Origin: Holophagales bacterium
GTDB taxonomy: Bacteria; Acidobacteriota; Thermoanaerobaculia; Multivoradales; Multivoraceae
DNA: 64,000 nt
Assembly (NCBI GenBank): GCA_009845425.1
Contig: VXZQ01000017.1
Span: forward strand, 273,463 to 337,462
Reading direction: 5' to 3'
How positions within the stretch are numbered: the stretch's first letter is position 1; each line of letters begins with the position of its first letter. The notes below the pieces were generated by a model that had not been told where the DNA came from, did no database searches, and was given only the letters and a program-made list of their open reading frames with translations. The translations under genes were made by a program, and so were the position numbers. Positions 11,305 through 64,000 of the stretch are shown one piece after another.

Positions 11305-11313
11305 TGCTCCTCC

Positions 11314-12042: not shown

Positions 12043-12114
12043 GCGTCACCTCCAACCTCGGGGCAAGCAAGAACTGTTCCATGACCTCCGGGCCGACCAC
12101 TGCCGTGAGCCATG

Positions 12115-12624
12115 TCACGGCGCATCGGCAAGCGGTCCGCTCGCACCGCCTCCACCGCTCTCGGTGGAGGCGGGCTGGACGGCTTCCGCCGCCACTGGCG
12201 ACCCCTCTTCGTCGTCCTCCCGGTCACCCTTGAAGTTCTGGTAGTACTCGACGAAGCGCGAGTAGTTCCGCCGGACATCCCGCTCGCGAGGCGCCAGCCG
12301 CAGCGCCTGCCGGTAGTAGCTCAGGGCTTCCTCGAACAGGCCCAGCGCTTCATGCGCGACCGCGATGTTGCTCAGGATCGCCGGGTGTTCCGGCTCGATC
12401 TTGCGAGCCTGTTCGAACCGGAAAAGGGCCTCGCTCCAGAGGCCCCGGTTGGCCATGTCGACGCCGAACTGCCACTGCTGCTTGGCCTCGGGGGCCACCT
12501 TGCGCTTCTGCGCTTCGGCGGTGCCGGAAATCGTCGCCAGGACCAGCACTCCCGCGATCAGCGCCAGAACGCGCGGCCGGCGGTAAGCAGTGCGCGTCAT
12601 CGAGCCAGTATAGATCACGGACAT
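12115..12624 (-). CDS. secreted TPR-repeat protein
   Basis: Signal peptide RVLALIAGVLVLATISGTAEA. TPR-like WSEALFRFEQARKIEPEHP...ALGLFEEALSYYRQALRLAP. Start at 12624 (MSVIY) or 12600 (MTRTAY). Confidence 0.7.
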   Translation of the reverse strand: MSVIYTGSMTRTAYRRPRVLALIAGVLVLATISGTAEAQKRKVAPEAKQQWQFGVDMANRGLWSEALFRFEQARKIEPEHPAILSNIAVAHEALGLFEEALSYYRQALRLAPRERDVRRNYSRFVEYYQNFKGDREDDEEGSPVAAEAVQPASTESGGGGASGPLADAP

Positions 12625-49566: not shown

Positions 49567-52200
49567 TTAACTGAGACAGTCTTCGATGAGCTGTTCGGCG
49601 GCAGCGAAGGCGGAGGTCAGGTTCTCGGCCCGACCTCCGGCCTGGGCGAAGTCTCGGCGACCGCCGCCGCTGCCCGAGATCGCGGAACCCATCGCCCGCG
49701 CTACTGCCGCAGCGTCGATGCGATCCTGAACATCCCTGGTCACCGAGGCGACGAGCTTCGCCTTGCCGTCATCCAGGGCGCCAAGGACGACGACGCCCGA
49801 TCCGAGGCGGCCCCGCAGGACATCGGCAAGGTTGCGAAGCTCGCCCACGTTCGAGGCCGGCACCTCGCGCAGGACGACGTCGACGCCGCGAATGGACCGC
49901 GTGTCGCCCGCGGCATCCTGGCCCGAAGCCGGCTTGCCGTCGCCGGCGAGCACGCCGAGCCTGAGCTGGGACAGCTCCCGTTCGATGTCGCGCAACCTGT
50001 CCTTGAGCGCCCGCACCTCGGCCGCGGCCTGTTCGCCGGACGCCCCGATCTCGCGTTCCAGGCTGGTCAGCAGATGCAACTGACTCCGGCGCAGGCGGTC
50101 GGCGCGGTCGCCCGCGAGCGCCTCGATCCGTCGCACCCCGGCGGCCACGCCACGCTCGCCCACCAGGGCCACCGGACCGATCTCGCCCGTGTTGCCGACG
50201 TGACAACCGCCGCAGAGTTCGAGGCTGAACCCGGGCACTTCGACGGTACGCACCCGGTCGCCGTACTTCTCGCCGAACAGGGCCATCGCTCCGGCCGCGA
50301 CCGCCTCGTCGTACGAACGCTCGCCGATTTCGAGCGGCACGGCGCGCCGCACCCACTCGTTGACCGTGTCCTCGATCGCCTCCTGCTGCTCTTCGTTGAC
50401 CGGTGCGCCGTGCGTGAAGTCGAAGCGCAGCCGGTCGGGGTGGACCAGGGAACCGGCCTGGCGCACACCCGTGCCGAGGTGCTGGCGGAGGGCCGCGTGC
50501 AGCAGATGGGTCGCGGTGTGGTGGCGCTGGGCGGCCTCCCTCTTCTCGCGGTCGACCTGGAGTTCAACGGCAGCGCCTTCCTCGAGCGCACCGCCAACGA
50601 CGTCGATCCGATGCACGATGCGCCCGCCGTCGTGGAAGGTGTCGACAACCCGCGCCTTGCCGCCGTCCCATTCAACGAAACCGACGTCCCCGACCTGGCC
50701 TCCCGCTTCGGCGTAGAAGGGAGTACGTTCGAAGACGGCGAAACCGGTATCTCTCACTTCCCTGACCGGCGCTCCCTCGGCCGATGCGACGGCAACCGCT
50801 CGCGAGTCCGCCTCCAGATCGTCGTAGCCGGTGAAGTCCCTCCCGGCACGCGGGGACGAAATCGAGAACTCGACCCTGGCCGGCATCACGGTCGCCGTAG
50901 CCCGACGCGAACGCTCCCGTTGCTCCGCCAGCGCCGCCTCGAACCCCTCCTCGTCGATCGTGAACTGCTCCTCCTCGGCGATCTCCCGTACCGTCTCGAT
51001 CGGCAGGCCGAACGTGTCGTAGAGCCGAAAGACCTGCTCGCCGACAAGCGCCGAACCGCCCTCGGCGCGCGCCTCCTCGATCGCCTGCTGGACCTTGCCG
51101 GCGCCGACCGCGACCGTCTCCAGGAACCGGGTCTCCTCGGCTGTGATGGTGGCCGCGGACGGCTCGCGCGCCTTCTCCAGTTCCGGGTAGTGGCCGGCGA
51201 ACGCCTCTTCGAGCGAGGGCAGGAGCGAGGCCATGAACGGCTCCTCCAGGCCCAGCTTCATGCCGTGGCGCGAGGCGCGGCGGAGGAGCCGGCGCAGGAC
51301 GTAACCGCGGCCCTCGTTGCTCGGCAGGACGCCGTCGGCGAGCAGGAAGCCGACCGCCCGGAGGTGGTCGGCTACCACCCGCATCGACACGTCCGCCTCC
51401 GGATCGCGGCCGTACTCGCTTCCCGCCGCCCCGGCCACCGCGGTCAGGATCGTGCCGAACAGGTCCGTGTCGTAGTTCGAGTCGACCCCCTGGAGCACCG
51501 CGGCCACCCTCTCCAGTCCCGCGCCCGTGTCGATCGACGGGTTCGGGAGCAGCTCGCTCCGGCCGTCCTCGTGACGCTCGAACTGCATGAAGACGAGGTT
51601 CCAGATCTCGAGGTATCGGCCCGAACCCTCTCCCTCGTCCCAGCCGACCTCGGGCAGGTCCGGCGCGGTGTCGACGAAGATCTCGCTGCACGGACCGCAC
51701 GGGCCGGTGTCGCCCATCGCCCAGAAGTTGTCCTTCTCGCCGCAGCGCAGGACCCGCTCCGGCGGCAGGCCGGAGATCCGCAACCACAGGTCCTCGGCCT
51801 CGTCGTCCTGCTCGAACACGGTGGCGAAGAGGTGTTCCGGCCGCAGGCCCCAGGGTCCGGTGACCAGCTCCCAGGCGGAAGCGATCGCCTCCTCCTTGAA
51901 GTAGTCGCCGAAGGAGAAGTTCCCGAGCATCTCGAAGAAGGTGTGATGGCGCGGACTCGGGCCGACGTTCTCCAGGTCGTTGTGCTTGCCGGACACCCTG
52001 AGACACTTCTGGGAGGTCACCGCGCGCGGCGACTCCGGCTGCTCGACGCCGAGGAAGTAGTTCTTGAACTGGACCATTCCCGCGTTCACGAACAGCAGGG
52101 TCGGATCGTCGCGCGGCACGAGGGGCGAACTCGCCACCGCCGCGTGCCCGCGGCCGGCGTAGAAGTCGATGAAGCTCTGCCTGATGTGCCGACTCAACAT
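49567..52200 (-). CDS. alaS: alanine--tRNA ligase
   Basis: ATG at 52200 (MLSRHIRQSFIDFY...). Editing-domain HxxxH/CxxxH motifs. C-terminal DHHA1. The 86-aa upstream extension in the track ORF is rejected. Confidence 0.93.
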   Translation of the reverse strand: MLSRHIRQSFIDFYAGRGHAAVASSPLVPRDDPTLLFVNAGMVQFKNYFLGVEQPESPRAVTSQKCLRVSGKHNDLENVGPSPRHHTFFEMLGNFSFGDYFKEEAIASAWELVTGPWGLRPEHLFATVFEQDDEAEDLWLRISGLPPERVLRCGEKDNFWAMGDTGPCGPCSEIFVDTAPDLPEVGWDEGEGSGRYLEIWNLVFMQFERHEDGRSELLPNPSIDTGAGLERVAAVLQGVDSNYDTDLFGTILTAVAGAAGSEYGRDPEADVSMRVVADHLRAVGFLLADGVLPSNEGRGYVLRRLLRRASRHGMKLGLEEPFMASLLPSLEEAFAGHYPELEKAREPSAATITAEETRFLETVAVGAGKVQQAIEEARAEGGSALVGEQVFRLYDTFGLPIETVREIAEEEQFTIDEEGFEAALAEQRERSRRATATVMPARVEFSISSPRAGRDFTGYDDLEADSRAVAVASAEGAPVREVRDTGFAVFERTPFYAEAGGQVGDVGFVEWDGGKARVVDTFHDGGRIVHRIDVVGGALEEGAAVELQVDREKREAAQRHHTATHLLHAALRQHLGTGVRQAGSLVHPDRLRFDFTHGAPVNEEQQEAIEDTVNEWVRRAVPLEIGERSYDEAVAAGAMALFGEKYGDRVRTVEVPGFSLELCGGCHVGNTGEIGPVALVGERGVAAGVRRIEALAGDRADRLRRSQLHLLTSLEREIGASGEQAAAEVRALKDRLRDIERELSQLRLGVLAGDGKPASGQDAAGDTRSIRGVDVVLREVPASNVGELRNLADVLRGRLGSGVVVLGALDDGKAKLVASVTRDVQDRIDAAAVARAMGSAISGSGGGRRDFAQAGGRAENLTSAFAAAEQLIEDCLS

Positions 52201-52216
52201 GAGTTCTGACCCCGCA

Positions 52217-52705
52217 TCAACTCGTCCCGGCCGAGTCGAACACGACGGTTCCAATAGTACGGGGAAGGAAGCCGCGCCGCTCGAGGTGCCGGGCCAGGGC
52301 AGCGGCGTCGCGTGACGGATGAGTCGACCTGAACCTCGCCGCCACGGCCGCCGCCCGCTCCAGCTCGTCCTCGTCGTCGACGGTTTCGAGCGCCGTCCGG
52401 GCCGCAGCCTCGTCGGCGCCGCGCCGGCGCAGGTCGAGTTCGAGTCTCCGCCGGCCATAGCCCCGTCGCTTGAGCGACCGCACGAGCACGTGCGCGGTCT
52501 CCCCTTCGTTCAGGTGACCGGCAGCGGTCAGCCGTTCGACCGCGCTCTCCACCTCGGCCGCCCCGTAGCCGCGCTGCCCTAGTTTCGTCGCCAGTTCGGC
52601 CGCGAAGTGCGGGCGCCGCGCCAGCAGATCCAGCCCACGGTCGTACGCGGGCTTCGGCGCCCGCTTTCGACTGGGCCTTCCGCGACTGGATTGGGAGTTC
52701 CGCAC
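52217..52705 (-). CDS. recX: recombination regulator RecX
   Basis: RecX-like three-helix repeats (LDLLARRPHFAAEL...). GTG at 52705. Confidence 0.8.
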   Translation of the reverse strand: MRNSQSSRGRPSRKRAPKPAYDRGLDLLARRPHFAAELATKLGQRGYGAAEVESAVERLTAAGHLNEGETAHVLVRSLKRRGYGRRRLELDLRRRGADEAAARTALETVDDEDELERAAAVAARFRSTHPSRDAAALARHLERRGFLPRTIGTVVFDSAGTS

Positions 52706-52738
52706 GTCACTTCTCCGGCGGTTCGAAGACTAGCGCCG

Positions 52739-53425
52739 TCACGGCGTCCCACTGAGGGCAACGGCGAGCGCGGCAATCGCGGCCGTCTCGGTCCGCAGCA
52801 CGCGGGGTCCGAGGTCCGCCGTAACCGCTCCACGCGCGGCCAGCTCCTCGATCTCCCGTTCGCTGAACCCGCCCTCGGGGCCCACCACGACCGCTTTCGC
52901 CGATCCCGCGACGGCCATGAACGGCGTCGCGGCGCCGGGGTGCAGCGCCACCGACCCGGCGCCGATCTTCACTTCCCCGAGCGGGACGGGCGCGGCGATC
53001 TCCGGCAGCCACGAACCGCCGCTCTGCTCGAGCGCCGACTTCGCGACCCGGCGCTGACGCTCCAACGCCTGCTCGGGCAGCGAACGGCTGGTGCGCTCCG
53101 AGACGAACCACCCCAGTTCGCGCAGTCCGAGTTCCGTCGCCTTCTCAACCAGCCAGGACGCGCGCTCCGGCCGCACCACGGACACAAACAGGGCCACGCG
53201 CCGGGCCGGCTCGAACACCGGCGCCGCACCTTCGATCCGCAGCACCGCCCGCAGCGCGGTCACCTCGTCCACAACCGACCAGCGAGCCGCGCCGCGACCG
53301 TCGACGAGTCGTACCCGGTCGCCGACCTTCAGCCGGCGGGCCCGAAACAGGTGCCGGTGATCCGCGCCTTCGACCTCGACCGTCTCGCGGGCGAGATCAC
53401 GGGCTTCGGCCAGCAGGTGGATCAC
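52739..53425 (-). CDS. rsmE: 16S rRNA (uracil1498-N3)-methyltransferase RsmE family
   Basis: C-terminal SPOUT fold VVGPEGGFSEREIE...LGPRVLRTETAA. Proposed GTG at 53425. The N-terminal 129 aa of the track ORF lie in another frame over dnaJ and are rejected. Confidence 0.8.
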   Translation of the reverse strand: MIHLLAEARDLARETVEVEGADHRHLFRARRLKVGDRVRLVDGRGAARWSVVDEVTALRAVLRIEGAAPVFEPARRVALFVSVVRPERASWLVEKATELGLRELGWFVSERTSRSLPEQALERQRRVAKSALEQSGGSWLPEIAAPVPLGEVKIGAGSVALHPGAATPFMAVAGSAKAVVVGPEGGFSEREIEELAARGAVTADLGPRVLRTETAAIAALAVALSGTP

Positions 53426-53453
53426 GAGCCCGGGTCGGTCAGGCGACGCGGCG

Positions 53454-54566
53454 TCAGAAGAGATCCTTGACCCGGTTGAACAGGCCGCGTTCCTCGCGGA
53501 TCGTGGCGTCGCCGTCGTCGGAGAGCTCGGCCAGCGCCCGCAGATGCTCAAGCTCGCTCTCCGAGAGGTCCCGCGGCGCCGGCACGTTGAGCAGCACCTC
53601 GACGACGTGGTCGCCGCGGCCGCGGCCGTCGATCCGGGGAATCCCCTGGGAGCGCAGCACGAAGGTCGAACCGTGCGCCGTCGCCGGCGGCACCTCGAGT
53701 TGCGTTGTGCCATGCACGGTCTCCACGTCCACCGCGCAGCCGAAGACCGCCTGAGGAAAGCCGATCGTGACCGAGCTGAGGACGTCGCCGCCGCGCCGGC
53801 TGAACCGTTCATGCGGCTCGACTCCGATCACGACGTAGAGATCGCCAGGCGGACCGCCATGCCGGCCGTGTTCCCCCTCGCCGGGAAGACGGAGGCGGGA
53901 CCCCGTGTCGACGCCGGCAGGCACCCGGACCTGGATCGAGCGCTGCCGCTCCTTCCGCCCCTCGCCCCGACAGTCGCCGCAGGGATCGCGGATGACGCTC
54001 CCCGCGCCGCGGCAGTCGGGACAGGTGCGGGCCACGGAGAAGAACCCCTGGCTGTACTGCACCTGACCCCGGCCGCCGCACATGCGACAGGTGGTGGGAC
54101 CGGACCCGGGCGCCGCGCCGCTGCCGCCGCAACCGTCGCAACGTTCGAGCCGCGGAATGCGCAGCTTCGGCTCCACTCCGAAAGCCGCATCCTCGAACGA
54201 GATCCGCAGGTCGTAGCGAAGATCCGCGCCCGCGCGCCGGCGGCGACCGCCGGCGCGACTGCCGAAGATGTCGCCGAAGCCGAAGACATCGCCCAGGATG
54301 TCCGAGAAGTCGGCGAAGATAGTGGGATCGAAGCCGCCGCCGGCCGGCGTCGCCTGGTGTCCGAAACGGTCGTAGCGCTGCCGCTTGTCGGCGTCCGAGA
54401 GCACCGCGTACGCCTCCGCGGCTTCCTTGAACTTCTCCTCGGCAGCGCTGTCGCCCGGGTTGCGATCGGGGTGGTGGCGGACGGCCAGCTTGCGGTAGGC
54501 CGACTTGATCTCCTGCAGAGTCGCCGAACGTTCGAGGCCCAGGACCTCGTAGTAGTCACGCGGCAT
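53454..54566 (-). CDS. dnaJ: molecular chaperone DnaJ
   Basis: J domain with HPD. G/F region. Four CxxCxGxG zinc repeats. Confidence 0.95.
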   Translation of the reverse strand: MPRDYYEVLGLERSATLQEIKSAYRKLAVRHHPDRNPGDSAAEEKFKEAAEAYAVLSDADKRQRYDRFGHQATPAGGGFDPTIFADFSDILGDVFGFGDIFGSRAGGRRRRAGADLRYDLRISFEDAAFGVEPKLRIPRLERCDGCGGSGAAPGSGPTTCRMCGGRGQVQYSQGFFSVARTCPDCRGAGSVIRDPCGDCRGEGRKERQRSIQVRVPAGVDTGSRLRLPGEGEHGRHGGPPGDLYVVIGVEPHERFSRRGGDVLSSVTIGFPQAVFGCAVDVETVHGTTQLEVPPATAHGSTFVLRSQGIPRIDGRGRGDHVVEVLLNVPAPRDLSESELEHLRALAELSDDGDATIREERGLFNRVKDLF

Positions 54567-54574
54567 GGCGTATC

Positions 54575-55183
54575 TCAGGCGCCGCCGGCCGCGGCGTCCG
54601 CGTCGGCCCCGGCGCCGTCCTCGACGTTGCCGTCCCGGGACGCCGGCGGCGGCGCCGGCACGGCGACCCGGACCATCGCGGCGCGTAGCAGCCGCGACTC
54701 CATCATGTATCCGGTCTGCAGCTCCTGCACGACAGTGGGCTCGTCGACTTCCGCGCTCTCTTCGCGCGCGACGGCCTGGTGTACGTTCGGATCGAAGGGC
54801 GCGTTCACGCCCTCCACCGGCTCGACGCCGAACCGTCGCAGAAGGTCCCCCATCTGACGCCGGATCATCTCGACGCCGGCGCGCAGGTCGTCCGCCGACG
54901 CCTCGGCCTCCAGCGCCCGGTCCAGGTTGTCGACCACGCCCAGGAACTCGCGCAGCGGACCGGCCGCCGTGTTCCAGCGCGATTCGAGCCGCTCCCTTTC
55001 GGCGCGCTTGCGCAGATTGTCGAACTCGGCCGCGGCGCGCCGCAGCCGGTCGACTTCCTCGCTCGCCGCCGCGAGCTCGGCCCGAAGCTCGCCCTCTGTG
55101 TCCGGCACGCCGGCGTCGACCGTCTCGCCGCCGCCCTGGTCCTCCTCGTGAGAGTCCGGGCTCTCCTTCGCCTCGATCGTCAT
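54575..55183 (-). CDS. grpE: nucleotide exchange factor GrpE
   Basis: GrpE coiled-coil plus C-terminal beta domain (FDPNVHQAV...). Confidence 0.93.
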   Translation of the reverse strand: MTIEAKESPDSHEEDQGGGETVDAGVPDTEGELRAELAAASEEVDRLRRAAAEFDNLRKRAERERLESRWNTAAGPLREFLGVVDNLDRALEAEASADDLRAGVEMIRRQMGDLLRRFGVEPVEGVNAPFDPNVHQAVAREESAEVDEPTVVQELQTGYMMESRLLRAAMVRVAVPAPPPASRDGNVEDGAGADADAAAGGA

Positions 55184-55217
55184 GGTCCAGGTTGCTGCGT
55201 CATGGTTCGGGTCCCTG

Positions 55218-56258
55218 CTAGAGCCTGCCGGTCAGAGCCTCGGACAGGCGCTCGCCCAGGTAGTTCACCAGCGGCACCATCCGCGGATACTCCATGCGCG
55301 CCGGCCCGACCACGGCGACCGACCCCGCAACGCCGTCGCCCGCCTTGTAGCTCCGCACGACGAGACCGAACCCGAGCTCCTCGGTCAGTCTCGAGTCCTG
55401 GCCCAGGACCACCCGCACGCCGTCCGCGTCGAGGCAGCGGTTGAGCAGACCCGCCAGCCGGGCGCGCTCGGCGAACATCTGAAACATCCCCTCGATCCGC
55501 GACATGCCGGGCCCCGCATCGAACAGGCTGTGCGTCCCGTCGACCACGAGCGACGGCGCGTGGCCGATGTTCATGCCGTCCCGGGCGAGTTCGATTGCCC
55601 GTCGCAGCAGCTCGTCGAGCCGGGCACGCTCGTCGCTCATCAGCCGTAGCAGCTCTTCCCGGATCTCGAAGAGGGTCCGCCCGCTGTAGTTCTCGGTCAG
55701 GTAGTTCGAAATGCGCACGAGGTCTTCGCGCGGGATCGGCTCGTCCGTGACGACGAGCTTGTTCTCGACGAAGCCGGTCTCGGCGACGACCACGCAGAGC
55801 ACCTTGCGCCCGCTGAGCGGCACGAACTCGATCGCCTTCATCACCGCCGAACCGAGGGCGGGAGTCAGTACGACTCCGACGTGGTGGGAGAGCTGCGAGA
55901 GCAGTCTCGAGGTTTCCTCGGTCAGTTCCTGGCCTGTGCCTCCGGCCGTCGTCAGCCGGTCGTCGATCAGGCGCCGGTCGTCGTCGCTCACCACCTCCGC
56001 CGACATCAGGTCGTCGATGAACAGGTGGAAACCGGCCTCGGTCGGCAGCCGACCCGCCGAGACGTGCGGCTGCCGCAGGTAGCCCATGTCCTCCAGGTCC
56101 GCCATCACGTTGCGGATCGTGGCGGCGGACAACTGGACCTGGCGATCCTTCGCGACCCTCCGCGAGGACACGGGTTCTCCCGACGACAGATACGTCTGGA
56201 TCACCTCCCGCAGAATCTCGCGGTCCCGGTCGCTGAGCTGGTCGTTGACACGACTCAT
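55218..56258 (-). CDS. hrcA: heat-inducible transcription repressor HrcA
   Basis: N-terminal wHTH LSDRDREILREVIQTYLSSGEPVSSRRVA. 346 aa. Confidence 0.93.
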   Translation of the reverse strand: MSRVNDQLSDRDREILREVIQTYLSSGEPVSSRRVAKDRQVQLSAATIRNVMADLEDMGYLRQPHVSAGRLPTEAGFHLFIDDLMSAEVVSDDDRRLIDDRLTTAGGTGQELTEETSRLLSQLSHHVGVVLTPALGSAVMKAIEFVPLSGRKVLCVVVAETGFVENKLVVTDEPIPREDLVRISNYLTENYSGRTLFEIREELLRLMSDERARLDELLRRAIELARDGMNIGHAPSLVVDGTHSLFDAGPGMSRIEGMFQMFAERARLAGLLNRCLDADGVRVVLGQDSRLTEELGFGLVVRSYKAGDGVAGSVAVVGPARMEYPRMVPLVNYLGERLSEALTGRL

Positions 56259-56301
56259 GGGAGCGGCATTCTACCCCCGGTGGTAGCGTTCCAGCGTCGG
56301 C

Positions 56302-56766
56302 ATGAGATGTCCATTCTGCGGCGCCAACGACGACCGCGTGGTCGATTCGCGGGACGTTCGCGGCGGGGAGACGGTCCGGCGCCGGCGGGAGTGCCTGAAC
56401 TGCGGCCGCAGGTTCACTTCCTACGAACAGATCGAGAACATCGCCTACCGGGTCGTCAAGTCGGATGGCCGCCGCCAGGAGTTCGACCGGCAGAAGCTCC
56501 TCGGCGGCCTGCTCAAGGCCTGCGAGAAGCGGCCGGTCGGTCTGCCTGCGCTGGAGGAGATCGTCGACCAGGCCGAAGCCCTGCTCCACCGCAAGGAGGA
56601 CCGCGAGATCTCGACGTCGGAGCTGGGCAACTTCGTCATCGACCGCCTGAAGACGCTCGACCAGGTGGCCTACGTCCGCTTCGCCTCCGTCTATCGGAAG
56701 TTCGAGGACGTGGACGAGTTCATGGAAGAGCTGCGGGTGCTCCTCGAAGCGTCCCGCAAGGACTAA
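56302..56766 (+). CDS. nrdR: transcriptional repressor NrdR
   Basis: MRCPFCG...CLNCGRRFT zinc ribbon plus an ATP-cone. Confidence 0.95.
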   Translation: MRCPFCGANDDRVVDSRDVRGGETVRRRRECLNCGRRFTSYEQIENIAYRVVKSDGRRQEFDRQKLLGGLLKACEKRPVGLPALEEIVDQAEALLHRKEDREISTSELGNFVIDRLKTLDQVAYVRFASVYRKFEDVDEFMEELRVLLEASRKD

Positions 56767-56821
56767 AAGGCGGCATCCGCAGACCGTCCCACAGCGTCCC
56801 CGGGGCTGGTACCGTGACCCC

Positions 56822-59236
56822 ATGGCCCAGAACCCGGTAGATGAGCAGGCGGACGCGATCTCGCTGCCCGACGTCCTGCCGGTGCTGCCGCTCAAGGACG
56901 CGGTCATCTTCCCCTACATCATCCTGCCGCTTTCGATCAGTCGCGACCCGAGCATGCTCGCGGTCGAGGACGCGCTGAACGGCGACCGCATCATCCTGCT
57001 CGCCCCCCAGCGCGACGGATCGATCGAGGCGCCGGGAGAGGACGACCTCCACGAGATCGGCACCGCGGCCCAGATCATGCGGATGCTGAAGCTGCCCGAC
57101 GGCCGGGTGCGGATCCTGATCCAGGGTCTCGCCAGAGCCCGCCTGCGCTACCTGAGCCAGACCGAGCCCTTCCTTCGCGCCCGCGTCGAAGAGGTGGACG
57201 AGGCCGGCGAACCCCACCACGGGCTCGAGGCGGAAGCGCTCGTGCGCAGCGTCAAGGAGGGTCTCGAGACGGCCGTCAACCTGGGCAAGGACATCTCCTC
57301 CGAGGTCATGGTGATCGCCGCGAACCTCGATCACCCGGGCCGGCTGGCGGACCTGGCGGCCAGCAACCTCGACCTGCGGGCGGACGAGGCCCAGCTCGTG
57401 CTGGAGACGACGCCGCCCCTCCAGCGGCTACGGAAGGTCGGGGACCTGCTGACCCGGGAGATCGAACTCCTCAGCATGCAGCAGCGGATCTCTGCCCAGG
57501 CCAGGAGCGAGATGGACCGCAGCCAGCGCGAGTACTTCCTTCGCCAGCAGCAGCGGGCGATCCTGGACGAACTCGGCGAAGGCGACGACCTCCACGGGGA
57601 CATCGAACGGTACGTGAGCGCCGTAGAGGAGAAGGGTCTGAGCGAGGAGGCGGCCCTGGAAGTCGAACGCCAGGTCAGACGGCTTGAGCGAAGCTCTCCC
57701 GACAGCGCCGAGAACGCGACCATCCGCACCCACCTCGACTGGCTGACCGGCCTCCCGTGGTCGACCCTGAGCGAGGATCGAATCGACCTCGACCGGGCCC
57801 GCACCGTGCTTGACGAAGATCACTACGACCTGGACCGCGTCAAGGAGCGGATCCTCGAGTACCTGGCGGTCAGGCGGCTCAAGCCGGACGCCAAGGGTCC
57901 GATTCTCTGCCTGGTCGGTCCCCCGGGCGTCGGCAAGACGTCGCTCGGCCGCTCCATTGCCCGCGCAATCGATCACAAGTTCGTTCGCATCTCGCTCGGC
58001 GGCGTCCGCGACGAGGGGGAGATCCGCGGCCACCGCCGCACCTACGTCGGTTCGTTGCCGGGTCGCGTCATCCAGGGCCTGAATCAGGCCGGAACCAGCA
58101 ATCCCGTCTTCATGCTCGACGAGATCGACAAGCTGGGCGCCGACTACCGGGGCGATCCGGCTTCCGCGCTGCTCGAAGTGCTGGATCCCGAGCAGAACTC
58201 GACGTTCAGGGACCACTACCTGGGCGTCGAGTACGACCTTTCGCGCGTGTTGTTCATCGCCACGGCCAATCTGCTCGAACCCATTCAGCCCGCCTTCCTC
58301 GATCGTCTCGAGGTGCTTCGACTCTCCGGCTACACCGAAGACGAAAAGGTACTGATCGCACGCCGCCATCTGTTACCCAAAGCCACGGACGAGAACGGTC
58401 TGCCGGCCGGCGCCCTGACCATCACGACGCCCGCGCTCCGCGGCCTCATTCGCGGCTACACGAAAGAGGCCGGCGTACGCAATCTCGAACGCGAACTCGC
58501 AACTCTCTGCCGGAAAGCGGCCGTACGCGTGGCGCGGGGGGACGGTCGGGAACTGAAAGTGACGCCGGCCCGGCTGAAGAACCTGGTCGGGCAACCGCGT
58601 CACTTCAGCGAGGAACTGCTCGACCGCGACCGGATCGGCGTGGCGACCGGACTCGCCTGGACCGCCTCCGGCGGCGACCTCATGCTGATCGAAGTCGCGG
58701 CGCCGAAGGGCAGGGGCAAACTGATCCTCACCGGTCAACTCGGCGACGTGATGAAGGAGTCGGCCCAGGCGGCGTTGAGTTGCGCCCGCACGACGTACGG
58801 CGCCGGTCCGGGAGCGGGAGGGCCCGATTTCTTCCGTAACCACGACCTCCACATTCATGTCCCCGCCGGTTCCGTACCGAAGGACGGCCCGTCGGCGGGG
58901 GTCACGATTGCCGCCGCCATCGTCTCCGTCTGCAGCGGGCGCATGATCGATCACAAGGTCGCGATGACCGGCGAGATCACGCTGCGCGGCGAAGTGCTCC
59001 CCGTCGGCGGCCTGAAAGAGAAGCTGCTCGCCGCGCGCGGAGCCGGAATTCGCAAGGTCGTCCTGCCGGAACGAAACCGGCGGGACCTTCCGGAGATACC
59101 GGCCGCGGTGACGCGAGGTCTTGAACTCCTGTTCGTCGAACACGTCGATCAGGTCCTGGAAGCCGCCCTTCTGGACCCGGAGTACCGGCTCGATTCGGAG
59201 CACCAGCGGTCATGGCCGGCCGCGAAGACCGGCTGA
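56822..59236 (+). CDS. lon: ATP-dependent protease Lon
   Basis: LON N-domain. Walker [11 protein letters not shown]-terminal proteolytic PKDGPSAG (catalytic Ser). Confidence 0.95.
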
Positions 59237-60204
59237 TCGCCTGGCTCGCGGGCTTCGCGGGCTCTGGAGATCGGATCGGCGACGACGCGGTCCTGCTCAC
59301 GCTCGGCGAGCGGCAGTACGCGTTCAGCGTCGACACGCAGCGCGCCGGCGTCCACATTCCGATCGATCTCGATCCCGCGGACGCAGCCCGCCGGCTGCTT
59401 GCCGTCAGTCTCTCCGATCTCGCCGCCACCGGGGCGATGCCGCGGTGGATGCTCGTCGCACTCGGCATCGACGATGAGGACACCGCCCGCCGTTTCCTCG
59501 CCGCCCTGGTGCGCGCCGGCCGCCGGTACGAAGTCGAACTCATCGGCGGCGACACCGCCAGGCCGACGACGCCGGGCCGGCTGGACGCCAGCCTCACCGT
59601 GGTCGGCGAGATACCGGAAGACGGCTCGCCTCTGACCCGCGACGCGGCTCGACCCGACGACCGGCTCTGGATCGGTGGACCGGTCGGAGAGTCCGCTCTT
59701 GGACTCGACCTGGTCCGCCTCGGCGCCCGGATGGCGAGACGGCGCGCCAACCTGCCCGAGGGGCTTCCCGACGGGCTGACCCGTGTCGCCAGCCGGGTCC
59801 TTCGCCGCCACCTCGAACCCCGGCCCCAGCTCGATCTGGGCCTGCTGCTCGGGCGGCGGTCGCCGGCGGGTGCCGCGATCGACGTGTCCGACGGCCTGGC
59901 CGCCGACGCGGTGCGGCTCTGCCGGCAAAGCGGCGTCGGCTGCGAACTCGAGGAAGGCGCACTCGCCCTCCGGGCCGACGCCCGCCGCCTGGCCGGCCAC
60001 CTGGACCGCGAGCCCCTGGAACTGCTTCTCGCCGGAGGCGAGGACTACGTCCTTCTGTTCACCCTGCCGCCGGACGCCGATCTACGCCATCCCGGGTGCC
60101 GGCCCGTTGGCCGGATCACGACCCGGCCCGGGCTGCGTTTACGCCGAACCGACGGAACGACCGAACCGCTGCCCGCCGGAGGCTGGGACCACCTCAGCGA
60201 TTGA
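59212..60204 (+). CDS. thiL: thiamine-monophosphate kinase
   Basis: AIR-synthase-related fold. N-terminal [10 protein letters not shown]...GDDAV. Overlaps the lon 3' end by 25 nt. Confidence 0.82.
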   Translation: MAGREDRLIAWLAGFAGSGDRIGDDAVLLTLGERQYAFSVDTQRAGVHIPIDLDPADAARRLLAVSLSDLAATGAMPRWMLVALGIDDEDTARRFLAALVRAGRRYEVELIGGDTARPTTPGRLDASLTVVGEIPEDGSPLTRDAARPDDRLWIGGPVGESALGLDLVRLGARMARRRANLPEGLPDGLTRVASRVLRRHLEPRPQLDLGLLLGRRSPAGAAIDVSDGLAADAVRLCRQSGVGCELEEGALALRADARRLAGHLDREPLELLLAGGEDYVLLFTLPPDADLRHPGCRPVGRITTRPGLRLRRTDGTTEPLPAGGWDHLSD

Positions 60205-61108
60205 GCGTGACGGTGATCGGCTGGTCCAGCTTCTGCAGCACCAGGCTCACCTGGGCCTCGAGCGCCGCCAACCTTGCCTCCACGCTGCCGGCCGCCGGCT
60301 GGCGCCTCACCTTGGCGGCTCTCGCCTTGCGCTTTCGCCGCGCCGGCGCCTTCGCGGCGGCCGCAACCTTGGCCTTCGGCTTCCGACCACGCCTGCTCCG
60401 GGAGCGAAGCTCGCGGAACACCGCCACCGCCTCCGGGTGATAGCGCCGCTTGCGGCCCTCGCCCTCGTGCGGTATCCGATCGCCGTACAACTTGAGGTAA
60501 CGCTGCAGCGTCGGACCGGAGATGCCGGTCTGCTGACCGATCGCGGTAAGCGTCAGGAGCTTCGGAGCGGGGGCCGCGGGCGTCGCCGCAACGCGCGCCT
60601 TGCGCTTCTTTCGAGCCGGCGACTTGGCCGCTGCGGCCTTCGGCTTGCGACCCGGCTTGCTCTCCGCTCGAAGCTCGCGGAACACCGCGACGGAATCCGG
60701 GTGGTAGCGCCGCTTGCGACCCTCACCCTCGTGCGGTATCCGATCGCCGAACAACCGGACGTAACGCTGCAACGTCGGATAGGAAATCCCGGTCTGCTGG
60801 CCGATGCTGGACAACGTCAACAGGGACGGACCGCCTGCCGCGCCCTTCGCTTGGGTTCCTGCCGCTTTCGTCGCGGCCTTCTTCTTCCGTCCCGCGCCCC
60901 GACGCTTCGTTGACCGTTCGTTCTTGAACGCCTTGAACTCCCTGACGGCCGCAACCGGATACCGCTGCCTGCGACCCTCACCCTCCGACGAGATCCGGTC
61001 CTGGTACAGCTTCTTGTACCGCAGCGCCGTGGCCATCGAAACACCGGCCCGGCGGGCCACTTCGCCCAACGTCAACAGTTTCTTTCTTCCAGCAGCCGCT
61101 GCACTCAC
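60194..61108 (-). CDS. protein with three tandem MerR/excisionase-type HTH repeats separated by Lys/Ala/Pro-rich linkers and a C-terminal coiled-coil
   Basis: GTG at 61108, preceded by AAGGAGA SD (5-nt spacer). Three ~88-aa repeats (LLTLxxIGQQTGISxPTLQRYxxLYGDRIPHEGEGRKRRYHPxAVAVFRELR + RKPKA/RKKRKA tail). The upstream 80 aa of the track ORF is rejected. Confidence 0.75.
   Translation of the reverse strand: MSAAAAGRKKLLTLGEVARRAGVSMATALRYKKLYQDRISSEGEGRRQRYPVAAVREFKAFKNERSTKRRGAGRKKKAATKAAGTQAKGAAGGPSLLTLSSIGQQTGISYPTLQRYVRLFGDRIPHEGEGRKRRYHPDSVAVFRELRAESKPGRKPKAAAAKSPARKKRKARVAATPAAPAPKLLTLTAIGQQTGISGPTLQRYLKLYGDRIPHEGEGRKRRYHPEAVAVFRELRSRSRRGRKPKAKVAAAAKAPARRKRKARAAKVRRQPAAGSVEARLAALEAQVSLVLQKLDQPITVTLNR
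60400..61075. repeat. intragenic tandem direct repeat, ~264-bp unit (two ~85% identical copies plus one diverged copy)
   Basis: AAGCTCGCGGAACACCGC... recurs at 60407 and 60671. Both DNA and protein periodicity are visible. Confidence 0.8.
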
Positions 61109-61165
61109 GTAGTTCTCCTTGCGCCGCCCTGTGGCGTTTCGGTCCGGTCCTTTCCGGGAAGTGAC

Positions 61166-61194
61166 AATATAGACGAGACGACAACAGAAGACAA
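61166..61194 (-). promoter_or_regulatory. candidate sigma70-type promoter for the triple-HTH gene (-35 TTGTCT, 17-nt spacer, -10 TATATT)
   Basis: An AT-rich patch in an otherwise GC-rich region, ~60 nt upstream of the GTG start on the minus strand. Confidence 0.4.
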
Positions 61195-61548
61195 GAATCG
61201 AAGAAGCCAACCGTGGGAGTGCCGAAGCGGTAGGCCACCTTCCCGCAGGGCCACCGGCGGCACAGTATCTCGTCGGTGCTGGAGCGGGACAGCCGTGGCT
61301 GGCAGCGCCCTCGTGAAGGGGCGTCTTTCGGCAGGCGCGGCGGAGCTCCAAGCTGGCTACTCGGCTCCCCAGCCACCACCAACTCTAGGTCGAGACGCCG
61401 ATGCTAAACGGGGCGGGGCGGGACCCTGGCAGCTCCATCGTGGCTGCTAGCATCGAATCATAGAGATTTCGCTATACTTGGATGCGTTGGCCGACGCACC
61501 TCAACCCCCCTCCCCCGGTGCTGGTACTGACCCTGCGGGCTTGCGAAC

Positions 61549-62676
61549 GTGGCTGGAACCAAGAAGAAACGACTCGCGGCAGGTCGTTCACATCCACTCA
61601 ACGCGATCTGCCCGTACTTCACGATGTTCCCGCTTGACTTCCCGTCCGGTATCTTGGCGCGGCGTGCCGCTGGGGCCAAACTGGTCTTCGACCCCTTTGC
61701 TGGCCGGGGCACTACCCTCTACGCGGCACGCCAGCGAGGCATCCGCGCCATTGGGATTGACTGTTCCCCGGTAGCGGTGGCCATCTCGCGGGCGAAGCTC
61801 GCGGACTTCACGACCGAAGGGCCGCTTGATCTAGCGAAGGTACTTGTCCAAGACCAAGGCCACGTCGAGGTGCCAGAGGGTGAGTTCTGGGAGTCAGCAT
61901 TCCACCCGGAGACATTGAGAGACCTCTGTCGCCTACGAGCGGGCCTCTTGAGCCTGGAAGACAACGATGCGTCCGTAGTACTTCGGGCGACAGCACTAGG
62001 TGTTCTACACGGCCCCATCACGAAAGTTCGAAGCTACCTGTCGAACCAGATGCAGCGCACGTTTTCCCCTAAGCCAAACTATGCCGTGCGATTCTGGAAA
62101 CGCCACGCGCTTGAGCCGCCAAGAGCGAGCGTCCTCGGGGCGCTGCGGCGAAAGCTCGATCTCATGGCCAAGGGTGTCTACCGGACCATCGAAGATGGAT
62201 GGCGAGACGTCCACCTTGGAGACTCTTCGAACTCCAAGTCGTACCGAGGTCTGCCGCCCTCCGTCGACACAGTGATCACGTCCCCTCCGTACTACGGAAT
62301 GAGGACGTATGTCTCTGACCAGTGGTTGCGTCACTGGTTTCTCGGTGGGCCAGACGACGTGGACTATACGACTTCCGGCGACTTGCCGTCATCGAGCCAA
62401 GACGACTTCTCGATCGCGCTCGGTCGGACGTGGACCAACCTAGGCGCCGTGGCGCCCGAAGGCCTCCGGCTGTTTGTGCGGTTCGGTACGATCCCATCCC
62501 GCCGGACGAATCCGCGCAAGCTACTGCTGAGTTCGCTGGAAGCGTCCAGCTTGAGTTGGCACGTCGTCTCGATCCGGAACGCGCGGAATGCGACGGCTGG
62601 CAAGCGCCAAGCAGATCAAATGTGCGGCTCAAGTAAGGCGATTGATGAGCTGGACCTCCATGCGGTCCTGTCCTGA
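61549..62676 (+). CDS. DNA amino-methyltransferase (N6-adenine or N4-cytosine), motif I FDPFAGRGTT then motif IV SPPY
   Basis: AdoMet motif VFDPFAGRGTT at ~aa 48 and catalytic TSPPYYG at ~aa 245. Lower GC (~58%). Start at GTG 61549 or the internal ATG at TMFPLD. Confidence 0.8.
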   Translation: MAGTKKKRLAAGRSHPLNAICPYFTMFPLDFPSGILARRAAGAKLVFDPFAGRGTTLYAARQRGIRAIGIDCSPVAVAISRAKLADFTTEGPLDLAKVLVQDQGHVEVPEGEFWESAFHPETLRDLCRLRAGLLSLEDNDASVVLRATALGVLHGPITKVRSYLSNQMQRTFSPKPNYAVRFWKRHALEPPRASVLGALRRKLDLMAKGVYRTIEDGWRDVHLGDSSNSKSYRGLPPSVDTVITSPPYYGMRTYVSDQWLRHWFLGGPDDVDYTTSGDLPSSSQDDFSIALGRTWTNLGAVAPEGLRLFVRFGTIPSRRTNPRKLLLSSLEASSLSWHVVSIRNARNATAGKRQADQMCGSSKAIDELDLHAVLS

Positions 62677-62679
62677 TCT

Positions 62680-64000
62680 TCAGACCGCGGGGTCACGCCA
62701 ACGAACCGTGATCCCTCTTGGGTCGTAGTCAGAGCCTCGGACCAGACTCGTTATGCGCCGGTCACACCACTCGTCGACCACGCCCCTAAGTGCGTGTGCG
62801 GTTTCAGCGGCGCGACGATCCTCTGGGATGTGGTTGGCCACCTCATCGGAGAGGAACACGATGCACTTTGCCATCGCTCGCGAGATTGCCACGTTGGTCC
62901 GTTCGAGCTGGAGCAGGAACCGCTCCTCGCCCCTAATGACATCCGGGTCGCCGACACCGAAGCTGATGATGATCGTGTGGCGTTCACTGCCCTGGAATCG
63001 TTCAACTGTGTCGACCGCCCCCTCAATCAGCTCAGGGTCGCAATTCGGAAACGTCCTCAGCAGCGTCTGCACGACCTGAGCACGCTGCGCGCGGTGAGGG
63101 GTGACGATGCCCAGACCCTGCTTCCAGAAAGTCTCGTCGTCCCACGGCCCGTGCGTCACTTCGCCAGGTCGGCCAGCCAGATGCTGCGAGGTCGATGATC
63201 GGAGGAGATGAGCAAGGGCAGCGACGCAGTCAGCTTCGAAGCCGTTAGCTTGGCCAGCCATGCCATCGGGGTAGGTGACCGCGACGATGGGCTTGGCAGG
63301 GTCAAGAAGCGTAGTCCAAGCGTCCGACGCGGCTAGGCCCATCTCCGCGAGGCTAGCCATGCAGTCTTCCAGCGGCCTCACTAGGTGGAGCCTAGTACTC
63401 CGGTTTGCCGCGTTCAGGCCAGTGGGGTAGCCGAGTCGCCGCGTGTAGGCCACGATGTCATGGTGGGAACGGTAGTTTTCGAGAAGTGGCACCGGTACCA
63501 CCTCGTCGAACCGCTCGATGAGGTAGTTCTGCAGGCTTCCGATGAGATGCTCGGCCCCTACCGGGGGCTCTCCGACAAAGATCGGAGGCATCTGTAGGTG
63601 GTCGCCGACCACCACCACCTGGAAGCACCGCTTCAAGAGAGCCAGCGGCGCCACTGCAATGCTCATGTCCATCTGAGAGCTCTCATCGATGACGACGAAG
63701 TCGAAGACTTCCCGCAGGGCCTCAGCGCCGTCGCGCTCTACTTTAGCTAGCTCCTCAGCGATCCTGGGGCATTGATGCGCCACGGCCGCGACGATCACGA
63801 CTCGACTTCCCTCTATAAAGTCAACTGCCATCTGCCGAAAGTGCGCGTTCGCCTCCTCCGCAAACGTCTCGAAGACTTCCATGTGTGTTCCGGTGTCCGT
63901 GGGTAACGGAAACCGGTCGTCGCGATAGCGCGAGTAAACCGGGTACAACCTGCACACCGAGGCCGGATCCTCAGCCAGTCCGTGGGCCAGTCTCCCGATG
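62680..64000 (-). CDS. superfamily 1B helicase, Upf1/DNA2-like (AAA_12 C-terminal domain). 5'-truncated, continues beyond window end
   Basis: Motif II VVIDESSQM, motif III VVVGDHLQMPP, motif V/VI TVERFQGSERHTIIIS. Walker A must lie upstream of the window edge. Convergent with the MTase, 3 nt apart. Lower GC. Confidence 0.8.
   Translation of the reverse strand, partial: IGRLAHGLAEDPASVCRLYPVYSRYRDDRFPLPTDTGTHMEVFETFAEEANAHFRQMAVDFIEGSRVVIVAAVAHQCPRIAEELAKVERDGAEALREVFDFVVIDESSQMDMSIAVAPLALLKRCFQVVVVGDHLQMPPIFVGEPPVGAEHLIGSLQNYLIERFDEVVPVPLLENYRSHHDIVAYTRRLGYPTGLNAANRSTRLHLVRPLEDCMASLAEMGLAASDAWTTLLDPAKPIVAVTYPDGMAGQANGFEADCVAALAHLLRSSTSQHLAGRPGEVTHGPWDDETFWKQGLGIVTPHRAQRAQVVQTLLRTFPNCDPELIEGAVDTVERFQGSERHTIIISFGVGDPDVIRGEERFLLQLERTNVAISRAMAKCIVFLSDEVANHIPEDRRAAETAHALRGVVDEWCDRRITSLVRGSDYDPRGITVRWRDPAV

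Follow-up and report, generated by a model that had tools for sequence, protein, structure and literature searches.

What does the low-GC end of this Holophagales contig encode: one arm of a larger defence system, two genes that are neighbours by chance, or a module in its own right? The window, i.e. the whole stretch of 64,000 nucleotides that was analysed, ends with a DNA methyltransferase gene (M) that converges on a helicase gene (R), which runs off the last base. The features of this region are as follows.

61109–61623, no strand: non-coding, upstream of M, approximate left boundary of the low-GC island (contig gene calls, GC profile)
61624–62676, + strand: M, DNA amino-methyltransferase, 350 aa (P0121, 100% identical; PF01555; PADLOC MTase_II)
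61687–61716, + strand: M motif I, FDPFAGRGTT, putative AdoMet binding (translation; DPFxGRGT kept in 56 partner methyltransferases)
62281–62292, + strand: M motif IV, SPPY, putative catalytic motif (translation; SPPYY in 54 of 56 partner methyltransferases)
62677–62679, no strand: 3-nt spacer between the convergent stop codons of M and R (ORF coordinates)
62680–64000, − strand: C-terminal 439 residues of R (1090–1528 of P0241), frame open to base 64000
62983–62997, − strand: FQGSE element in the C-terminal RecA-like domain of R (translation; nearly invariant among homologs)
63583–63606, − strand: R helicase motif III, GDHLQMPP (G1221, D1222, Q1225, M1226 and P1228 invariant in 30 homologs)
63673–63687, − strand: R helicase motif II, DESSQ (Walker B), within VVIDESSQM (D1194, E1195, S1197 and Q1198 invariant in 30 homologs)

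The region differs in composition from the rest of the window. The GC content is 61.6% in 61352–64000 and 69.0% in 1–60000, and the fall begins near 60,750–61,250 in 500-nt windows. A sequence-only reading of the window had placed a drop to ~58% at ~61,400; the drop is real, but it is smaller. The same reading took the region for a foreign low-GC insertion, and this is borne out by the GC3 values, which are 0.71–0.73 in M and R versus 0.82–0.91 in Lon, ThiL, HrcA, GrpE and NrdR and thus rule out an effect of amino-acid composition. The flanking MerR-repeat gene is core-like (GC3 of 0.82 compared to 0.71 in M). Low GC extends at least 9 kb past the window end, and the island also carries an IS1595 transposase and a fusion of a methyltransferase with an Mrr-type nuclease domain. 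No tRNA or att-like direct repeat was found at the island edge, and no terminator-like site was found there or at 62677–62679.

The ORF of M spans 61549–62676 on the + strand. The database protein ('site-specific DNA-methyltransferase [Holophagales bacterium]') begins at ATG 61624, and GTG 61549 is an alternative start. FDPFAGRGTT and SPPY are separated by ~190 residues, so motif I precedes motif IV, as the sequence-only reading had noted. Both hallmarks of amino-methyltransferases, the FxGxG AdoMet motif and (S/D/N)PP(Y/F), are present. The Pfam family PF01555 matches M with an E-value of 6.8e-9 (36.4 bits, cut-off 26.7) and covers only the motif-I end, while the PADLOC model MTase_II matches residues 15–266 (5.9e-17); the best PADLOC matches are Type II models. 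Judged by the order of its motifs (motif I, a middle region, then SPPY), M is assigned to the alpha class of DNA amino-methyltransferases. SPPY, together with the UniRef name of one homolog (P0178), is a tentative lead to m4C as the product.

The window part of R begins just past motif I in helicase domain 1A and continues through domain 2A to a C-terminal tail, with the remaining ~1,000 residues encoded beyond the window. The window end is identical to positions 1–12377 of a longer sequence (L003) from the same contig of the Holophagales MAG, which was used to read beyond base 64000 and in which the full R gene occupies 11057–15385/15643. R is annotated at 1,528 aa (P0241), compared to ~1,440 aa in homologs, and its true start is near M87. 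In P0241 numbering, GPPGTGKT is found at 1044–1051 and DESSQ at 1194–1198. The Pfam families AAA_12 (2.9e-16) and AAA_11 match the helicase. Among solved structures compared by sequence, DNA2 gives 4.4e-16, and the DNA2/IGHMBP2/Upf1 matches range from 4e-16 to 1e-11. By these matches the C-terminus of R is assigned to the SF1B helicases of the DNA2/Upf1-like group, in agreement with the earlier description of an SF1B helicase whose stop codon lies 3 nt from that of M.

The sequence-only reading expected that a nuclease domain, if any, would lie in the helicase N-terminus past 64,000, and the extended contig does encode a predicted one. Its remark that no restriction endonuclease is visible is therefore correct for the window and does not extend to the off-window part of the R gene. 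The motifs and the predicted fold both point to a Cas4/AddB/Dna2-type PD-(D/E)xK nuclease with residues C102, E142, D225, D261-x-K263 and S271-Y272..E275..Y279, followed by a 'staple' of C379-x2-C382 and C407. In alignments of 30 and 22 homologs, C102, D225, D261-x-K263, Y272/E275/Y279, C379, C382 and C407 are invariant. The four cysteines have an 'iron-staple' arrangement and are predicted to hold an Fe-S cluster. Cas4 and Dna2 are the fold matches of this domain. R differs from Cas4/AddB in showing no sequence-profile match to them, in having no CRISPR context and in the spacing of its third and fourth cysteines, which is 24 residues in R and 5 residues in Cas4/AddB.

The nuclease domain is followed by a helix-hairpin-helix (HhH)-like segment and a domain of ~200–250 residues with a predicted RNase H/DEDD-exonuclease fold (D503, E550, E597 and E697 invariant), ahead of a Dna2/Upf1-type stalk and beta-barrel and the SF1B helicase. 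The DEDD-fold domain does not have the canonical ExoI DxE and so may be non-catalytic. The AlphaFold2 model of residues 87–1020 has a pLDDT of 86.6 and a pTM of 0.82. Residues 1–1016 have no match among Pfam, NCBIfam, PADLOC, PHROGs or PDB sequence profiles; a profile built on the 434 N-terminal residues finds only spurious matches among PDB sequences (e.g. pantoate reductase), and a Foldseek search of the R model against the PDB finds nothing at E ≤ 0.001. Overall, R appears to be built like Dna2: nuclease, HhH-like segment, RNase H/DEDD fold, stalk/beta-barrel and a putative 5'-3' SF1B helicase.

PGAP names R 'AAA family ATPase', and such generic names of the two proteins are the only point in favour of a chance pairing of an orphan methyltransferase with an unrelated RecD-like helicase. 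The distribution and co-divergence of the two families refute this and leave coincidence with next to no probability. The search recovered 75 genome loci, from 75 species spread sporadically across many phyla, and clustering at 50% identity gives ~270 family clusters out of 1.84 billion representatives. In 59 of the 60 species with an intact R, the M family adjoins it despite three gene orders: M lies downstream and convergent in 42 of them, downstream and co-directional in 10, and upstream in the other 7. The single exception (L019) carries a divergent DUF6094 methyltransferase in place of the M family. Outside this contig, either 1–100 nt separate the two genes or they share a 4-nt overlap. 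The pair is also present in all nine IMG/VR loci and in both full-length plasmid loci. Furthermore, the two proteins co-diverge: over 56 pairs, the pairwise identities of R are correlated with those of M (r = 0.77, Mantel p = 0.001).

The association is asymmetric. An orphan M with no R nearby exists (L095), and three R remnants without M (L049, L059 and L067) are internally truncated; among the 60 loci with a complete R, none has an intact R without any methyltransferase. This asymmetry, in which an orphan M is tolerated and an intact R is always paired, is as expected of restriction-modification and fits a toxic R. The earlier suggestion of a modification-dependent system is unlikely for a nuclease that is inherited along with a methyltransferase of its own, and obligate linkage of this kind is incompatible with a Type IV nuclease that depends on methylation.

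ORF clustering of 78 loci shows that M and R are the sole conserved genes and that their neighbours are unrelated between loci. Integrases, transposases, GmrSD and dGTPase are over-represented directly beside the pair, consistent with the sequence-only view of an uncharacterised pairing in a defence setting. One pair is located beside Kiwa; another, on a conjugative plasmid, adjoins DUF262 and an anti-phage dGTPase; and a third is at a prophage end. On two conjugative plasmids the pair lies near T4SS genes, and it also occurs in integrative elements common to different genera. M and R are a self-contained, horizontally mobile two-gene module.

The conservation of M and R alone runs counter to the proposal that they are one arm, or a piece, of a known multi-gene defence system (BREX, DISARM, Dpd, Mokosh or Nhi-like) whose remaining genes lie outside the window. 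That proposal drew on real matches. The best PADLOC matches of the R helicase core are DpdJ (7.5e-33), MkoC/MkoA (~1e-20 to 1e-23) and Hhe, the NCBIfam matches are PLuB_AAA and ProA, and the island contains the second, Mrr-fused methyltransferase. The matches are confined to the generic SF1B core, however: DpdJ is matched at profile positions 41–477 of 2,112, with no dpdA-K neighbours, and the MkoA, MkoC and Hhe matches are limited to helicase motifs. Their scores are far under the curated cut-offs (PLuB_AAA, 104 bits versus 999; Hhe in NCBIfam, 22.9 bits versus 2,000). The 9 kb past the window contain no PglZ, BrxC, DrmA/B, Dpd or PLD genes, and neither BREX (PglZ with BrxC/PglY) nor DISARM (DrmA with DrmB/DUF1998) was found there or in the homologous loci. 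Nhi, Hhe, Mokosh MkoA/MkoC and DpdJ share with R an SF1B/Upf1-like helicase core and a defence-island setting. Their accessory domains (PLD, Vsr, DUF4011) differ from those of R, and these systems are not known to have a dedicated methyltransferase and may discriminate self from non-self by other means. Membership of a larger known system is largely refuted and very improbable.

A literature search for named systems or follow-ups returned a sole precedent, the 2020 paper on the Bad protein of Geobacillus stearothermophilus and its 'Bad plus methylase' hypothesis (Wilkinson et al., NAR; PMC7430649). Bad (1,245 aa) combines an Fe-S nuclease with an SF1B helicase, acts both as a helicase (5'-3') and as an endonuclease on ssDNA, with a preference for ssDNA and 5' overhangs, and always adjoins a methyltransferase, in this case a Type III Mod-like m6A enzyme (GCCAT); it was proposed to represent a new class of restriction enzymes that unwind and degrade DNA (PMC7430649). 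By published description, R and Bad have the same order of parts, namely an N-terminal Fe-S 'iron-staple' RecB-family nuclease (predicted in R), a long central region that resembles no other sequence, and an SF1B helicase at the C-terminus. Both genes adjoin a DNA methyltransferase and are sporadically distributed. R differs in its length (~1,440 aa), in its alpha-order SPPY partner, in its cysteine spacing (CxxC-x24-C) and in the RNase H/DEDD fold and Dna2-like barrel predicted for its middle part, where Bad has a central domain without an assigned fold. None of the 75 loci with R-family motifs is a Firmicute, Geobacillus, archaeal or methanogen locus, and no protein of ~1,245 aa is present in the top 150 representatives.

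The likeness to Dna2 and Bad raises the question of whether R instead works in DNA repair or the processing of DNA ends, as a bacterial counterpart of Dna2/AddAB. M would then supply a regulatory epigenetic signal, e.g. Chi-like 'self' stops or strand/age marks, and killing foreign DNA would not be the main role. The Dna2-like domain order and fold agree with this, as does the fact that Bad is a junction-specific 5'-3' helicase and flap/ssDNA endonuclease (PMC7430649). A 5'-3' motor joined to a 3'-5'-exonuclease-fold domain also resembles end-resection machines. Across 56 pairs, no hypervariable specificity domain was found in M or R; this is atypical of restriction-modification families with diversifying targets and counts against restriction-modification. 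In domain content R and Dna2 differ: Dna2 runs from a nuclease through a barrel/stalk to an SF1B helicase and lacks any further domain of catalytic fold, such as the one predicted in R. Eukaryotic and archaeal DNA2 (PDB id: 5EAN/5EAX) has neither an HhH segment nor an RNase H/DEDD-fold insert and no methyltransferase partner. The sporadic spread of R, its foreign composition, the asymmetry that fits a toxic R and the presence of the pair on conjugative plasmids, in prophages and in islands bordered by integrases or transposases are unlike the inheritance of a housekeeping repair gene. A primary role in repair is rather unlikely.

Carriage on mobile elements could also mean that the pair is mainly a selfish addiction or stabilisation module (post-segregational killing), or a barrier to incoming single-stranded conjugative DNA and not to phage. 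The location beside T4SS genes on two conjugative plasmids and the integrative elements shared between genera fit this, and a 5'-3' ssDNA motor of the SF1B type, by analogy with Bad, would suit a transferred strand that enters 5' end first. The pair is also found in chromosomal defence islands near anti-phage genes. Moreover, addiction is compatible with restriction-modification because classical restriction-modification systems also act as addiction modules. As the main role of the pair, addiction or a conjugation barrier is quite unlikely.

From its architecture, pairing and mobility, we infer that the M–R module is probably an ATP-driven, two-gene, restriction-modification-like system. Like Type III (Res/Mod) and Type I/ISP systems, it combines a methyltransferase with a large, putatively ATP-dependent subunit that has a helicase-like motor and a predicted PD-(D/E)xK nuclease, is inherited as a unit, tolerates orphan methyltransferases and occurs in mobile or defence settings. 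The motors of those systems belong to SF2 (ResIII/DEAD) and translocate or slide on the duplex without unwinding it, unlike the Upf1/Dna2-like SF1B motor of R. No ResIII or DEAD domain was found in R, and no SF2 domain, HsdS or fused methyltransferase accompanies M–R. The Res nuclease is a C-terminal PD-(D/E)xK domain, and that of R is N-terminal and predicted to be of the Fe-S Cas4 type.

The methylation target, self/non-self logic and degradation of DNA could be envisaged as follows. M would mark the host DNA throughout by methylating a short motif. R, by itself or with M, would load on incoming DNA that does not carry the mark and spend ATP on unwinding it in the 5'-3' direction while its nuclease domain(s) cut the strands. 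The restriction subunit would thus be an unwinding SF1B helicase-nuclease, as opposed to the SF2 translocase of Types I and ISP or the switch of Type III. Two observations count against restriction-modification: the preference of Bad for ssDNA and 5' overhangs, which would make it harder for such an enzyme to start on intact duplex phage DNA, and the convergent genes 3 nt apart, which offer no clue to how R would be restrained before M acts. More tentatively, the pair may represent an unrecognised ATP-dependent restriction-modification class, a possibility to which we give somewhat less than even weight. An SPPY methyltransferase would be joined by a single-polypeptide 'shredder' (Fe-S nuclease, second nuclease of RNase H/DEDD fold, SF1B helicase) that destroys unmethylated DNA by unwinding it and cutting both strands, unlike Types I–IV, on plasmids, prophages and islands in at least ten phyla.

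The R family is invisible to PADLOC-DB v2.0.0 and NCBIfam naming and is therefore missed by defence annotation built on them. No copy was found in complete E. coli genomes with a Pluralibacter query. The pair does occur in cultivable Silanimonas, Ectothiorhodospira, Bradyrhizobium, Rhizobium, Cupriavidus, Methylotuvimicrobium and Pluralibacter, so the restriction-modification hypothesis is directly testable. For the 'unknown central domain' of Bad-like proteins, the RNase H/DEDD-fold and barrel domains predicted in R supply an initial structural hypothesis. If the module is a working restriction-modification system, it would be a mechanistically distinct type, with a true unwinding SF1B helicase-nuclease in place of a duplex translocase or a simple endonuclease, and bacterial Dna2-like enzymes, long a puzzle, would gain a biological role.

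The features of the methyltransferase gene (M) and of the convergent nuclease-helicase gene (R) that lie inside the window are as follows.

61549/61624–62676, plus strand: ORF of M (ORF listing and translation)
61687–61716, plus strand: FDPFAGRGTT motif of M (translation)
62281–62292, plus strand: SPPY motif of M (translation)
62680–62682, minus strand: stop codon of the R ORF, 3 bases from the stop of M (ORF listing)

Both methyltransferase motifs claimed in the sequence-only reading are thus found upon translation, and the convergent arrangement, with stops 3 nt apart, is borne out by the ORF listing. The helicase motifs VVIDESSQM, GDHLQMPP and FQGSE are all present in the translated minus-strand R ORF, the frame of which contains no stop as far as base 64000. 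M matches the Pfam family N6_N4_Mtase (E 6.8e-9), with the match confined to the motif-I end, and the window part of R matches AAA_11/AAA_12. Among solved structures, full-length R matches DNA2, IGHMBP2 and Upf1 via the helicase core.

The compositional island in which the pair resides is real. The GC content is 61.6% at 61352–64000 vs 69.0% at 1–60000, a drop of about 7 points and not the 10 originally read, and GC3 is 0.71–0.73 in M and R vs 0.82–0.91 in Lon, ThiL, HrcA, GrpE and NrdR. The shift therefore affects synonymous positions and identifies the DNA as foreign. The same region is found on contig VYDY01000018.1 of GCA_009843175.1 (locus L003), where positions 1–12377 are identical to window positions 51624–64000 and the sequence runs past the window end; M is 100% identical to P0121 of a Holophagales MAG. 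Beyond R, L003 carries three small ORFs with no matches, followed by a methyltransferase–Mrr fusion, an IS1595 transposase and a pentapeptide-repeat gene, and a GC content of 0.55–0.64 persists through to its far end, at window-equivalent 72.7 kb. Two further features belong to these surroundings.

L003 17164–19397 (window-equivalent 68787–71020, outside the window): methyltransferase–Mrr_cat fusion gene and IS1595 transposase gene
60194–61108 (gene call) or 61351 (longest ORF), minus strand: MerR/HTH_17-repeat gene

The first encodes a 474-aa beta-class N6/N4 methyltransferase with a C-terminal Mrr_cat nuclease domain, and it overlaps the IS1595-family transposase gene. It is a second modification/restriction-like gene of the island, unrelated to the pair. 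An imperfect 46-nt inverted repeat (78% complementary; L003 15457–15502 and 18991–19036) has one arm just upstream of the R start and the other within the transposase gene, and may be a chance occurrence. The product of the MerR/HTH_17 gene is K/R-rich, contains three MerR/HTH_17-type HTH repeats and gives a weak PADLOC ‘mad1’ match (2.8e-13). A 264-nt tandem duplication (window ~60371–60586 and 60635–60850, 80% identical) underlies it. With a core-like GC3 of 0.82, this gene is probably outside the island.

On VYDY01000018.1, the R ORF is annotated with 1,528 codons, and hence the window contains only residues 1090–1528 (numbered according to the database protein P0241). All homologs begin at M87 of P0241 (MRFGKxVLSQ), which makes R about 1,440 aa long; the P0241 annotation is 86 codons too long (L003 15386–15643, window-equivalent 67009–67266). 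Residues 1–1016 have no matches in Pfam, NCBIfam, PADLOC, PHROGs or PDB sequences. Alignments of 30 homologs and of 22 more diverse ones reveal several sets of invariant residues in this region: C102, E142, D225, D261-x-K263 and N269/S271/Y272/E275/Y279; C379-x2-C382 and Y406-C407; N501-F502-D503, E550, Q586/W590/Q594/E597 and P695-R-E697-R-I. Likewise invariant are two motifs of the helicase, GPPGTGKT (1044–1051), which contains the Walker A residue K1050, and DESSQ (1194–1198).

The stretch C102–Y279 with its flanking cysteines matches the residue pattern that PMC7430649 describes for RecB-family nucleases of the Fe-S ‘iron-staple’ kind (AddB, Dna2 and Cas4). The off-window N-terminus, where the earlier reading had placed any nuclease domain, is thus predicted to hold one of Cas4/Dna2 type, judging by residues invariant in homologs. 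An RNase H-like sheet can be placed at residues ~485–700 by secondary-structure order, which would position D503 at the end of β-1, E550 at the start of α-1 and E597 in the helix after β-4. The canonical ExoI ‘DxE’ position is D-P-G in R, and consequently this RNase H/DEDD-fold domain is only putatively catalytic. Together, the residue pattern and the predicted sheet make R a Dna2-like protein with an inserted module of predicted HhH and RNase H/DEDD folds.

The family is large. The N-terminal 1,020 residues of R retrieve 37 proteins, nearly all 1,432–1,454 aa long, in a word-indexed search; the contigs that encode them agree in length with those of the closest M homologs. An exhaustive profile search for R in 1.84 billion representatives yields 273 clusters at 50% identity (E <= 1e-30), most of them 1,400–1,500 aa. 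When one genome per species is scanned, R turns up at 75 loci, cultured strains included, in Acidobacteriota, Alpha-, Beta-, Gamma- and Deltaproteobacteria, Planctomycetota, Chloroflexota, Cyanobacteria, Bacteroidota, Verrucomicrobiota and Nitrospirota. Silanimonas lenta DSM 16282, Ectothiorhodospira shaposhnikovii DSM 243, Bradyrhizobium manausense BR 3351, Cupriavidus pauculus and Methylotuvimicrobium sp. KM1 are cultured carriers. Shorter related helicases (640–760 aa; set P0024, P0054, P0030, P0022) occur in Agrobacterium and Microbulbifer, and the P. aeruginosa and Salmonella entries of the same list are shorter still, some of them partial. P0030 and P0022 have only the barrel/stalk and the SF1B part in common with R; neither the nuclease nor the RNase H-fold domain is present in them.

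Gene order, determined by tblastn on the 75 loci, ties M to R. R is complete at 60 loci; M lies directly downstream and convergent at 42 of them, downstream and co-directional at ten, and upstream and co-directional at seven. The remaining complete R and an M standing alone are located as follows.

L019 1550–7059: intact R without the usual M
L095 7001–8131: orphan M, 63% identical to the window M

At L019 the divergent upstream neighbour is a DUF6094 methyltransferase (4e-31), an apparent non-orthologous replacement of M. No trace of R is found within 7 kb of the orphan M at L095, which adjoins HerA-like DUF87, HNH and ImmA/IrrE-type genes. At three further loci (L049, L059, L067), R is an internally truncated remnant and tblastn finds no M. 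Both genes are present at all nine IMG/VR loci and both full-length plasmid loci. When all ORFs of 78 loci are clustered, the M and R families alone are widely shared. Pairwise identities of R and M are correlated (r = 0.77, Mantel p = 0.001, 56 pairs), and SPPYY is found in 54 of 56 M proteins. Adjacency kept through changes of order, replacement of M, the occurrence of orphan M and never of orphan R, and co-divergence are, taken together, what is classically seen where a cognate methyltransferase restrains a toxic nuclease. The pair is thus a complete two-gene module with its own methyltransferase, and neither one arm of a multi-gene system nor a modification-dependent system, as had been proposed. 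Two damaged copies of R were also seen. In Pluralibacter gergoviae ATCC 33028 (L075 10001–12751), the N-terminal part of R has one in-frame stop and M is intact; this R is a pseudogene, or else the stop is an error of sequencing. At L001 (6940–10428), R is broken into two ORFs of 618 and 539 aa, has no methyltransferase and adjoins Kiwa (KwaA/KwaB); it looks like a decayed copy.

Genes flanking the pair vary from locus to locus. They include AbiEi, an AAA_15/21 and HNH pair, resolvases and a serine recombinase. A conjugative Bradyrhizobium plasmid has an anti-phage dGTPase and DUF262 beside the pair, and a Rhizobium plasmid has T4SS genes. In Cupriavidus, the pair is at a prophage end, next to another methyltransferase and a ResIII/TnsA-like gene. 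Among the 126 immediate neighbours, the families seen most often are phage integrase and the transposition genes IS66, rve and TnsA, along with GmrSD, dGTPase and HEC-06; the enrichment is a qualitative statement drawn from these 126 alone. The surroundings are those of mobile defence islands, and the defence-like setting anticipated earlier holds, with Kiwa, anti-phage dGTPase, AbiEi, GmrSD and integrases at various loci. The same layout recurs at L014, L016, L017, L041, L062 and L075 in Ectothiorhodospira, Aquabacterium, Natronospirillum, Pokkaliibacter, Paenalcaligenes and Pluralibacter. Proteins of ~993 and 506 aa (exemplified in L014) neighbour the pair in 11 and nine loci, respectively. 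This suggests one mobile element passing between genera.

The domain architecture, the intact catalytic motifs of the window copy, the obligate methyltransferase pairing and the mobility are established here. As for the mechanism, M would mark host DNA, and R would engage unmarked DNA, perhaps after recruitment or licensing by M, in the way that Mod acts on Res. R would then unwind the DNA while its Cas4-type site cuts the tracked strand, and the RNase H/DEDD-fold domain, if active, would degrade the displaced 3′-ended strand, making R a single-polypeptide, AddAB-like two-strand shredder. We consider restriction–modification logic of the pair overall moderately probable, and the two-nuclease detail less so. 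No hypervariable, indel-rich specificity block was found in M or R; residues 141–180 in the middle of M are among its best conserved parts.

The closest precedent, likened from its published description, is Geobacillus Bad, an Fe-S cluster-containing, ssDNA-dependent ATPase, processive 5′-3′ translocase/helicase and ssDNA or 5′-flap endonuclease (PMC7430649). Like R, Bad is built of three parts, the central one having no relatives, and adjoins a methyltransferase, in its case a Type III Mod-like m6A enzyme. No Firmicute or methanogen is among the 75 loci with R-family motifs, which suggests that the R family is a lineage separate from Bad. Matches of R to DpdJ, MkoA/C, Hhe, PLuB_AAA, ProA and RecD2 in PADLOC/NCBIfam are confined to the SF1B core, with scores well under the family cut-offs, and no partner genes of the DpdJ, MkoA/C, Hhe, PLuB_AAA or ProA systems are present. 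Membership in Types I, ISP or III restriction-modification is rejected on a defining feature, since their motors are SF2 and that of R is SF1B. In a literature search of incomplete coverage, no later paper testing the Bad-type restriction idea or naming the M–R pair was found.

The sequence-only reading was therefore right in kind (a foreign island with a methyltransferase and a Dna2-like helicase that conceals a predicted nuclease, uncharacterised and defence-like) and wrong in scope, the system being a two-gene module. On balance, the pair probably works by restriction-modification logic, its restriction subunit being an SF1B Dna2-like protein, a combination earlier anticipated solely as a hypothesis for Bad. 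The M–R family is widespread, carries no system annotation and is directly testable in cultured strains.
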